Made by a program: the position numbers. Shown one piece after another: positions 21,001 to 24,000 of a stretch of 64,000 nt of DNA. Numbering within the stretch: position 1 is the stretch's first letter; each line of letters starts with the position of its first letter. The DNA lies in assembly GCF_054482525.1 (NCBI RefSeq), contig NZ_JBTHVG010000003.1; one strand, 5' to 3'. The stretch comes from a plasmid.

Positions 21001-24000
21001 GTCTATGCAGCGGCCGTTAGTGAAACCCGGGTGCTCGATGCCTGGCTTTGCTGGCCATGCTACCCGGCGAACTGGTAACGCGGCCGTTGGAATTGCACCG
21101 GCCGGATACGAATTTAACCGACCCCGTGGCGGGAAGGCTATCAGAGTTGCATGTCCTCATCCCTCAAGCCCCCTGCCAGGCCCCAACGTGCTGTCAGGCT
21201 TCGCCTGATTCCCGATCTGCGCCGATACTTCAGCCGATAACTTTTTGTTTTCTTTTTATTTTCTTCCCATTTCCTCAAAAATCGCGGGCGGCGTGGACAG
21301 GGCACCATTGCCGCATGTGGGGTCTTAATAAGGGCAGGGTGGTCAGTTTTGCTCGATGCCAGGGTTAGGCCCTCCCCTTCATGGGATGAGGACATGCAAG
21401 TAAGCTAACTATCTGAAATGACGAAGGTTCATTTGGTGAATGTCGCTTCATATTAATGTTGTGTCACTTATGATCGTATGTAGCTGGTTGCAAAGAGGAG
21501 CGATGAGACAATAAAGTTGTATCGCTAACAAGATTTATGCTGCCACATAGTAACAGCCTAAAAGTTGTACGCCCTATTTAACAGCTTTTAGGCTGTTAAT
21601 TTGATATTACAGCTTTTAGGGTGTATGTTTAGGAAACAGCCTGCAAGGTGTATCAGAGGAAACTACTGAGGCCAGCTTATGATCAATAATGATTACCCGT
21701 TAAACACGCTCAACCAGCTGCGTCCCTTGCTCATTGGTTTTCGCAAGGCGAATGGCCTGACGCAAAAAGACCTGTCCGAAAGGTTAGGCGTCACTCAACA
21801 GACATACTCACGTCTGGAAGCCAACCCTGCCAGTGCGAGCATTGAACGGCTATTCAAGGTGTTTTCCATCCTGGGCGTAAAAATCAGCTTCTCCTCGGCA
21901 ACCACCTCTTCAGAGAGGAAGCAGACGGAAGAAATGCTTAAATCAAACTCACCTGCACGACAGGAGGATTGGTAACGATATGAGCCGGAAACAGCAACGT
22001 CTGGTAATTTGGATGAACGGCATCAAAGTCGGGTACTGGGAAAAAAGCAAAGGGGTAGACAGCTTAGAATACCTTCCTGAATGGGTTGCTGACGAACAGG
22101 GAAGGCCGCTGTCATTGTCCCTTCCTTTTACTCCCGGGAACCAGGTCTGGCGTGGAAATGTGGTACGTGACTATTTTGATAATTTACTGCCGGACAGCGA
22201 AGGCATACGCAGACGTCTGGCAATGCGTTACAAGGCCGATAGCCTGGAGCCTTTTGATCTGCTGACGGAGCTGGGAAAAGACTGCGTGGGCGCGATACAG
22301 CTGCTTCATGACGGAGATGAACCCACTGATTTATATTCCGTGAAGTATCACCCGCTTACTGAATCAGAAATTGCGGCAACTTTGCGTAATACCACGGAGA
22401 CATTGCTACCGGGCAGGCCAGAAGATAACGACGACTTACGTTTATCTATTGCCGGTGCTCAGGAGAAAACAGCCCTACTGTGGCATGAAGAACGGTGGTG
22501 TATGCCGGAGGGTAATACACCAACGACGCATATATTCAAGCTACCGCTCGGACTTGTGGGGAACATGAAAGCCGACATGAGCTCGTCGGTTGAAAATGAA
22601 TGGCTCTGCTCGGTACTTCTCGGCCAGTACGGGCTCCCCGTGGCAAGAACGCAGATTGCTCACTTTGAAGATCAGAAAGCGCTGGTGGTAGAACGTTTTG
22701 ACCGAAAATGGTCAGGAGACGGACAATGGATCATTCGTTTACCCCAGGAGGATATGTGTCAGGCCCTGGGCGTTTCGCCATTACGAAAATATCAGGCGGA
22801 CGGCGGGCCAGGTATATCGGAAATTATGGAGGTTCTGAGTAATTCAGACCGTGCTGAGCGTGACAAAGCGCAGTTTTTTATGACGCAGATAATTTTCTGG
22901 ATGATGGCCGCAACAGATGGCCACGCTAAAAATTTCAGTATTTCTATTGGGCCACAGGGACGTTATCACCTTACACCAAACTATGATGTGTTGTCGGCAT
23001 GGCCGGTGATCGGTCATGGGAACAATCAGATATCCTGGCAGAAGTGCAAACTGGCGATGGCCGTACGTGGCAGTAGCAACTATTACCAGATATATCGAAT
23101 ACAACGACGCCACTGGATCAGGCATGGTGAGATAACCGGCCTGAGTAAACAGCAGACAGAGGCGATGATAGAGGAAATCATCGCCAGAACCCCGGGTGTC
23201 ATTGAACGTGTTAGCGGGCTTCTTCCGGACCAGTTCCCCCAGCAGCTTGCGGAAAGTATTTTTGATGGAATGAGGCAGCAATGCAGGCGCCTGGCTGAGA
23301 AATGACAGCCGCAATTTATAGTGTGCATGTTTTCAGAATAGCTGATGTAAGCGTGAGGATTCAGTATGACTGAAGAACAAAAAAGAATAGAGCGGGCTAT
23401 TGAGTTGGCTTGTCGTTACGGCGGAACCGATGAAATGCATCATCTGCAATGGGTCGTGGATCAGATGGTAAGAGAACTTGCTGGAGAACGTTATGCACAG
23501 ATTGTAGCTGATGCCACCAGCGGAGAAGATGGGCCTGATACTTACAAATGGAGTGTTGGGATCGCGCCTTAACAGCTGTCGGTCTGGGGGTGAAAACGTA
23601 TTCTTCATTCAGCGAATTCCCAGGCTTCACATTAAGACTAAAGCGGCGGCCGCAGTAACGTAAGAGAAAATAAATGGCTATTTTAGCAATCATTGCAGTT
23701 ATCGCCCTGGGTGGGTACGCCTACGGATTTATTAAAACCCGTGAGCTGAGCGCTTTGCGTAAAGAAATGAAACTATACGTGGATCGCATGGAAGCGGCGG
23801 AGCTGGACTTACACGCAATCAGAAGTGTAGCGGAGCACCGGTTGCACGGTGCAGGTAAACAGTTTGCCGACCTTTACAGCCGTATCGACGGTGCAACTGT
23901 GACGCTGACACCCGAAGATCAGCTGTTACTGGCAACGATGCCATTTAATATTCAGGATGTAGAAGACATCGTAAACGAGCGCGGTCCAAAGACAATTAGC

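Follow-up and report, generated by a model that had tools for sequence, protein, structure and literature searches.

A 64,000-nucleotide stretch of plasmid DNA (NCBI RefSeq assembly GCF_054482525.1, contig NZ_JBTHVG010000003.1; hereafter the window) carries the genes of a HipB-like antitoxin and a HipA-like kinase, preceded by four regularly spaced palindromes. The locus is, in our assessment, likely to be an autoregulated type II hipBA toxin-antitoxin operon of IncHI2 plasmids that shares the architecture of the Escherichia coli system but has a distinct operator specificity. The palindromes, numbered here OP1 to OP4 from hipB-distal to hipB-proximal, are very probably HipB's own binding sites, judging from their sequence and distribution; the numbering of the E. 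coli operators runs the opposite way (oligonucleotide in PMC3376134). Operator specificity of the ACAGC type appears not to have been described before and to be common to a broad subgroup of HipB proteins.

An ordered array of four dyads upstream of hipB

Each of the four sites is a 16-bp dyad of the form ACAGC-N6-GNTGT, with the right arms GTTGT, GCTGT, GGTGT and GGTGT in OP1 to OP4, respectively (Table 1). Their cores follow each other at start-to-start distances of 28, 28 and 27 bp, leaving gaps of 11–12 bp. Such an arrangement is not random. Five matches to the pattern occur in the window, OP2 counting twice as it matches on either strand, where 0.45 would be expected; a count of five was not attained in any of 100 dinucleotide shuffles, and no exact match beyond OP1–OP4 occurs elsewhere within the 64 kb. 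On a weight matrix derived from 186 sites at homologous loci, OP1–OP4 score 16.7–23.5 bits; in shuffles that preserve local composition, a window holds 0.09 sites scoring 16.5 bits or more. An extended pattern of 17 bp gave no match with one mismatch allowed. An earlier reading of this DNA from the sequence alone (the sequence-only reading) had noticed four related palindromes at this place, and the exact pattern recovers all of them. The starts it gave (21551, 21580, 21608 and 21635) included one or two flanking bases, and the spacing is the one stated above rather than 27–29 bp. The inner spacer of variable length (N6–8) that it proposed is rejected, as all four sites fit N6 once the right arm is taken as GNTGT.

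OP1 is close to the reverse complement of OP2 because the asymmetric centers of the two sites (CTAAAA and TTTTAG) are inverted, and together they make up a 23-nt inverted repeat (21546–21568 and 21581–21603) that could form a cruciform or serve as an insulator. Folded as RNA, the operator region is more stable than shuffled sequences (z = -4.5), which is probably a by-product of the repeated palindromes. A lone strong match to the weight matrix, ACAGCTTATATTTTGT (18 bits, 49862–49877), is followed by ATGTTT as at OP3 and precedes a small open reading frame (49934–50164) by about 70 bp. Its chance occurrence is about 0.03 in shuffles of local composition, and from its sequence it could be either an extra target of HipB or a coincidence.

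The sites recur at conserved positions upstream of hipB in other genomes

Plasmid homologues of HipB that are 55–66% identical have the same motif upstream, in surroundings that have otherwise diverged, and a hipBA locus of Cronobacter has four sites. One genome per species was scanned with an alignment of HipB; the 80 loci obtained were chosen by a helix-turn-helix peptide pattern. In 59 of the 80, one to five copies of ACAnn-N6-nnTGT precede hipB, and these motif-bearing loci span Enterobacterales, Burkholderiaceae, Comamonadaceae and Lysobacteraceae, with about 60 species represented. The 225 bp upstream of hipB in 64 loci of HipB homologues (40–100% identical) contain 186 sites by the strict pattern, with ACAGCYTATARGCTGT as the consensus, as against only six weight-matrix matches in 301 kb of sequence flanking the same loci.

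Spacing and position of the sites are conserved as well. The distance between adjacent sites is 27 bp in 92 instances, 28 bp in 28, 29 bp in three and 30 bp in one. The sites of Enterobacterales hipBA loci lie approximately 125, 97, 70 and 43 bp 5´ of the start codon (126, 98, 70 and 43 bp in the window), with the equivalent of OP1 at 124–126 bp in 17 of 22 loci, and these positions hold while the sequence between the sites has diverged. Homology between two IncHI2 lineages begins abruptly at 21530 (1853 in L004, the locus of the other lineage), 23 bp before OP1, implying that the sites travel with the genes. The two half-sites of a dyad vary independently, their complementarity is that expected for independent arms, and the non-consensus positions found compensated number 2 of 23 and 3 of 43. 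This lack of compensatory change between half-sites argues for a protein-binding site and not for a hairpin in RNA or DNA.

In a motif-led scan of metagenomes, hipB was found within 300 bp in 18 of 80 loci, and a further three loci were arrays of the hipB type at the ends of contigs. The others comprised chance matches and two kinds of repeats (Table 1). Paired perfect hairpins resembling repetitive extragenic palindromes (REP), GTAGCACAGCCTTCAGGCTGTG ... CACAGCCTAAAGGCTGTGCTAC, came from sediment metagenomes and matched the pattern by chance, unrelated to hipB; tandem 28-bp satellites, e.g., ACAGCAGTAATGTTGTTATCATAACAA, and further arrays with a 28-bp period matched the two-site pattern.

Genes and proteins of the module

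The two genes lie on the same strand, separated by the four nucleotides CGAT (21976–21979); their coordinates bear out what the sequence-only reading said of protein sizes and gene distance. There is no second copy of hipB or hipA within the window. In the RefSeq and PLSDB annotation, hipB starts at 21682 (ATC). We prefer the ATG at 21679, which has a GAGG on its 5´ side and aligns with the conserved CTTATG start of the homologues, the HipB of the window having one additional codon after the start. The family assignment follows the canonical hipBA organization, Clade I of PMC8262856.

HipB matches Pfam HTH_3 (4.5e-15), and its top match among solved structures is E. coli HipB (1.4e-6), with which it shares only 24% identity. 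Its recognition helix reads TQQTYSRLE, where the E. coli counterpart is KQATISNFE. The tail (residues 73–98) is variable and ends in SPARQEDW, the terminal Trp being shared without exception by the intact homologues and by E. coli HipB. In E. coli, the C-terminal Trp of HipB also sits in a pocket of HipA. The tail of E. coli HipB is a degron for the Lon protease, and its W88 is universally conserved (PMC3376134). The protein falls below the NCBIfam equivalog cut-offs for both HipB (41.5 against 79) and Y4mF (41 against 71.65) and is thus the equivalog of neither, which explains its generic RefSeq name, "helix-turn-helix transcriptional regulator".

HipA contains the domains HipA_C (PF07804, 3.6e-51) and Couple_hipA (PF13657, 3.7e-21), both over the Pfam gathering scores. 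Residues 7–431 match E. coli HipA structures at 2e-100 in an end-to-end alignment, the identity to HipA of E. coli K-12 being 41%; HipA of Shewanella oneidensis is a far weaker match (1.5e-21). The assignment of both proteins made from the sequence alone is therefore upheld by domains and by best structural matches. In E. coli HipA, S150 is autophosphorylated, D309 is catalytic, D332 binds Mg, and K181, K157 and N314 belong to the catalytic and ATP-binding set. All are invariant in the plasmid protein, as S156 (S150), K163 (K157), K187 (K181), D313 (D309), N318 (N314) and D336 (D332). The sequence-only reading had named absence of the catalytic residues as a finding that would speak against it, and on alignment with E. 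coli HipA every one of them is conserved. The positions of high-persistence alleles (hipA7-site) are invariant too: G25 (G22), P91 (P86), D93 (D88) and D295 (D291).

A predicted promoter within the array

A promoter scan calls a sigma-70-like element, TTGATA-17 nt-TATGTT, that overlaps the array such that OP3 would occupy the spacer and OP4 the transcription start. Among 26 homologous loci of Enterobacterales, a TAnnnT hexamer at the last T of OP3 is found in 25 and a TTG 8 nt 5´ of OP3 in 17. In 82% of the four-site loci, OP3 has GGGTGT as its right arm, a position-specific bias that is consistent with an overlapping -10 hexamer.

Table 1. Features of the hipBA locus (window coordinates) and loci of unrelated repeats returned by the motif-led metagenome scan (locus handles)
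Feature	Position	Strand	Description and basis
OP1	21553..21568	.	Most hipB-distal; ACAGCCTAAAAGTTGT; exact pattern match; 20.2 bits (weight matrix)
OP2	21581..21596	.	ACAGCTTTTAGGCTGT; arms exactly palindromic, both strands match; 23.5 bits; ends 4 nt 5´ of the -35-like hexamer
Predicted -35, TTGATA	21601..21606	+	Between OP2 and OP3; promoter scan
OP3	21609..21624	.	ACAGCTTTTAGGGTGT; exact match; 21.1 bits; fills the -35/-10 spacer
Predicted -10, TATGTT	21624..21629	+	Begins at the last T of OP3; promoter scan
OP4	21636..21651	.	hipB-proximal; ACAGCCTGCAAGGTGT; exact match; 16.7 bits; starts ~7 nt past the -10, at the predicted transcription start
Shine-Dalgarno-like GAGG	21668..21671	+	7 nt 5´ of the hipB ATG; sequence reading
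hipB	21679..21975	+	98 amino acids, ATG; Cro/XRE helix-turn-helix antitoxin and repressor (predicted); open reading frame, Pfam HTH_3
Shine-Dalgarno-like AGGAGG for hipA	21962..21967	+	Within the 3´ end of hipB; sequence reading
hipA	21980..23305	+	441 amino acids, ATG; HipA-family Ser/Thr kinase toxin (predicted); open reading frame, Pfam, structure matches
REP-like hairpin loci	L090, L094, L095, L112, L117, L143, L152–L154, L157, L158, L160, L161, L163, L164, L166, L167		Motif-led metagenome scan
Satellite and 28-bp-period loci	L100, L107, L113, L119 (Ga0123355/57 metagenomes); L146; L108		Motif-led metagenome scan

Site number and solitary hipB genes

Complete hipBA loci of Enterobacterales have four sites in 17 of 22 cases and three in the other five. 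Ten Enterobacterales loci have hipB with no hipA within 2–2.5 kb, and these have one to three sites, mostly two (Mann-Whitney P = 9e-7, the loci being phylogenetically non-independent). Judged from the HipB sequences, at least five separate lineages contribute to this contrast. Solitary hipB genes occur on IncHI1-type/MOBH plasmids (L005, 2001–2300; L006, 2001–2303; L007, 2001–2300) and on chromosomal contigs (L014, L021, L025, L029, L035, L038). The promoter-proximal pair is what they retain, with a -10-like TAnnnT after the first site, and one locus also retains half an OP2. Their HipB proteins keep the C-terminal ...RRExW tail, and no conserved partner gene was found neighboring or downstream of them. 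Four sites before hipBA, as against two before solitary hipB, constitute a natural experiment on the purpose of the distal operators.

Loss of hipA can be seen at intermediate stages. In Klebsiella indica (L010, 2802–2906) the gene is cut after codon 35, beside genes of the IS66 family, and in Silvania and an Enterobacteriaceae metagenome-assembled genome (L011, 2854–2919, and L012, 2834–2923) it is deleted to the last 22–30 codons; hipB and the operators persist in all three. Three hipBA loci of Lysobacteraceae have a single, perfect site, 40 bp 5´ of hipB, reading ACAGCCTATAAGCTGT in L066 and L068, near the top of the matrix, and ACAGCATATAAACTGT in L062. Four sites are thus typical of the enterobacterial branch, and operator number depends on lineage.

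Comparison with known hip systems

E. coli K-12 has a hipBA locus with four operators of the type TATCC-N8-GGATA at start-to-start distances of 28, 39 and 28 bp, all of which are recovered by a pattern search, and a TATAAT between the proximal pair. The promoter scan does not call the hip promoter of E. coli, TTGACT/TATAAT at 23 bp. HipB binds the four E. coli operators cooperatively, with HipA as co-repressor (PMC3920265), and the four-operator arrangement that the sequence-only reading ascribed to E. coli is accordingly well founded. Common to the two systems are the order of the genes, the domains and catalytic residues of HipA, a Cro-like HipB with a Trp-ending tail, four dyads, adjacent pairs at 28 bp (all three intervals here, at 27–28 bp) and a -10 hexamer between the proximal operators, which on the plasmid is a predicted one. 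They differ in the dyad (16-bp ACAGC-N6-GNTGT as against 18-bp TATCC-N8-GGATA), in spacing (28/28/27 as against 28/39/28), in the junction of the genes (4 nt apart as against a 1-nt overlap), in location (plasmid as against chromosome) and in HipB itself. With up to two mismatches, TATCC-N8-GGATA is absent from 21400–21700 and has 28 matches in the whole window against 20.3 expected, which is chance level; an operator of the E. coli type at this locus is therefore rejected. That the operator sequence departs from the chromosomal type had been seen from the DNA alone. The distinct HipB specificity deduced from this is supported by the divergent recognition helix and by the recurrence of the motif upstream of HipB homologues in about 60 genomes.

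In S. oneidensis MR-1, hipBA has four GTGTA-N6-TACAC operators with a separation of 34 bp, one of them within hipB (PMC4150777). The plasmid system resembles it in having four 16-bp dyads with an N6 center, genes a few nucleotides apart (3 there, 4 here) and a Trp in the C-terminal tail of HipB, and differs in the sequence and orientation of the half-sites, in the gaps (11–12 bp as against 34 bp) and in the placement of all sites upstream. Allowing two mismatches, GTGTA-N6-TACAC has one match near the locus (21648–21663) and 15 overall against 16.3 expected, and an operator of this type is rejected because the matches occur at chance frequency and form no array. The right arms of OP3 and OP4 (21619–21625 and 21646–21652) read GGTGTA, the left half-site hexamer of the S. 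oneidensis operator (AGGTGTAC...), placed on the opposite side of the dyad. The sequence-only reading missed both the earlier recognition of hipBA in the IncHI2 backbone (PMC6617520; PMC4855149) and the N6 precedent of S. oneidensis (PMC4150777).

A HipA/HipB pair on a mobile element is also known from the integrative and conjugative element R391, where hipAB stabilizes the element and deletion of hipA results in 12-fold more loss (PMC4489591). The likeness to the present module lies in the carriage of a HipA/HipB pair by a conjugative element. A Morganella locus (L036) in which hipB and hipA overlap, as described for R391, was considered as a relative of R391, and the link was not established.

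The module in the IncHI2 backbone

The window is IncHI2 plasmid backbone. An identical record is typed IncHI2A/MOBH and has the ter tellurite-resistance genes a few kb upstream, in line with the plasmid origin of the module assumed from the beginning. The 2-kb locus is 95–100% identical in 1186 plasmid records, 1153 of which cover at least 80% of the query. Host genera include Escherichia, Salmonella, Enterobacter and Klebsiella, and the plasmids are mostly conjugative and 200–330 kb in size. Among 5426 complete E. coli genomes, 285 have the locus, nearly always on a plasmid. The hipAB of IncHI2 plasmids (R478, pHXY0908, pAPEC-O1-R) is the same module, named in RefSeq as "type II toxin-antitoxin system HipA family toxin" and "helix-turn-helix transcriptional regulator", and hipAB or hipA/B has been counted among the backbone maintenance genes shared with R478 (PMC6617520; PMC4855149). 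Upstream neighbors differ between lineages, with ter-side hypothetical genes here and another hypothetical gene in pSTm-A54650 (L004); this difference and the abrupt start of homology place the hipBA cassette at a rearrangement boundary. Searches of the literature with the operator strings gave no relevant paper.

Discussion

We propose that HipB dimers, alone or as HipA2HipB2, would bind the four ACAGC-N6-GNTGT dyads. With OP3 in the spacer of the predicted promoter and OP4 over its start, occupancy would exclude RNA polymerase and keep transcription of hipBA low. Lying upstream of the -35 in the same 27–28 bp phase, OP1 and OP2 may contribute cooperativity and, if E. coli is a guide, may hold HipA inactive in a DNA-bound assembly. 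Loss of HipB, whose variable, Trp-ending tail is similar to the E. coli HipB degron for Lon, would free HipA; the kinase would then act on an aminoacyl-tRNA synthetase (GltX, the E. coli target, being the likeliest), whose phosphorylation would stop translation and growth. On a low-copy plasmid, segregants that have lost the plasmid would be penalized (addiction), and antibiotic tolerance may rise. A labile HipB and a stabilizing effect on the plasmid are what we infer from the degron-like tail and the precedent of R391 (PMC3376134; PMC4489591). Of the biological payoff, be it addiction, persistence or defense, and of the target of HipA we are much less confident than of the operon itself.

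Several points weigh against this account. The promoter has a predicted position and a -35 hexamer that is weakly conserved. Selection of the comparative loci by a helix-turn-helix peptide pattern means that the co-conservation of operator and recognition helix is partly built in, and the non-hipB loci of the metagenome scan show that two sites alone are not diagnostic. Four sites are not universal, with three in some hipBA loci and one in Lysobacteraceae. Between the two IncHI2 lineages, the ratios of nonsynonymous to synonymous substitution rates (dN/dS) are 0.36 for hipA and 0.50 for hipB, values that come from few substitutions. GltX as the target is a guess, since HipA kinases of other species target other synthetases (PMC8262856). 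Finally, our search of the literature found no paper that tests the IncHI2 hipBA or describes its operators or promoter; those that mention it go no further than naming it as a gene of the backbone.

The distal sites may have a purpose of their own. Reportedly, in work of Schumacher and colleagues from 2015, HipA molecules on adjacent E. coli operators dimerize through their N-subdomains, which blocks the active sites. Dimerization of this kind on adjacent operators is plausible here by analogy, the interface residues being conserved, and the counterparts of E. coli G22, P86 and D88 are conserved too, in line with possible scaffold contacts through the N-terminal subdomain of HipA. It is conceivable, though on balance we find it unlikely, that the phased array is a scaffold for HipA2HipB2 on which the distal sites sequester HipA, and that solitary HipB proteins act across loci as anti-addiction factors. 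Distal sites devoted to sequestration of HipA rather than to repression would explain why solitary hipB genes keep the proximal pair only. The solitary HipB proteins share the motif, a near-identical recognition helix and the Trp tail, and could in this way cross-repress or neutralize the IncHI2 module. If so, they would shape which hosts and co-resident plasmids tolerate the loss of an IncHI2 plasmid.

Other explanations of the locus deserve consideration. A genuine HipBA pair with the same operators might serve abortive infection, anti-phage defense or stress dormancy in place of post-segregational killing. Most of the homologous hipBA loci that have these operators lie on chromosomes, where they cannot serve plasmid addiction, and HipA matches the PADLOC candidate defense family PDC-M03A (3.4e-5). 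This match is weak and partial, HipB matches only generic helix-turn-helix models, libraries of anti-phage defense systems returned nothing but weak or generic matches for the two proteins, and the annotation beside the module identifies no defense genes. A hipAB on a mobile element, R391, has been shown to stabilize that element (PMC4489591). We regard such a role in place of post-segregational killing as rather improbable.

Two further readings seem to us highly improbable. One takes the palindromes for targets of another plasmid or host factor (an iteron, a centromere-like site or a site for a nucleoid protein), or for a hairpin or terminator that insulates hipBA. OP2 is flagged as terminator-like, with a 9-pair stem followed by TTTGATATTA, and the inverted repeat of OP1 and OP2 and the folding signal described above would suit it. 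The stem of OP2 has only three G-C pairs, however, and the folding is an expected by-product of palindromes. What is conserved is specific bases (ACA...TGT) and not pairing, and the hairpin or terminator is rejected on the lack of compensatory covariation and the weakness of the terminator-like match. An unrelated factor is also difficult to reconcile with an array that accompanies hipB on plasmids and in the chromosomes of numerous genera, keeps a constant distance from its start codon and has no second copy in the 64 kb. The other reading regards the locus as an autoregulated HipB repressor cassette with an attenuated or inactive relic kinase. Relatives have indeed lost or truncated hipA repeatedly while keeping hipB and the operators (by an IS66-family element in L010, by deletion in L011 and L012, and in the ~10 loci of solitary hipB), and the dN/dS of hipA is not very low. 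Yet hipA has a full-length reading frame here, as it does in over 40 related loci, the catalytic and ATP-binding residues are all intact, and 1153 of the 1186 plasmid records retain 80% or more of the locus.

An autoregulated hipBA toxin-antitoxin operon with its own class of operators thus remains the reading that we favor. It does not overturn current understanding, and the mechanism would be a familiar one: autorepression by HipB or HipBA at dyads that overlap the promoter, with the toxin freed upon loss of the antitoxin. IncHI2 plasmids are important vehicles of mcr-1, mcr-9, extended-spectrum β-lactamase (ESBL) and oqxAB resistance genes, and hipBA is repeatedly cited as a factor in their persistence, a role that none of the papers found has tested. 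The map of promoter and operators and the consensus ACAGCYTATARGCTGT, repeated in a 27–28 bp phase, make the module directly testable. As the operator class is common to a HipB subgroup of Enterobacterales, Burkholderiales and Lysobacteraceae, it adds a third class of operators for comparing the evolution of HipB specificity and of co-repression by HipA.

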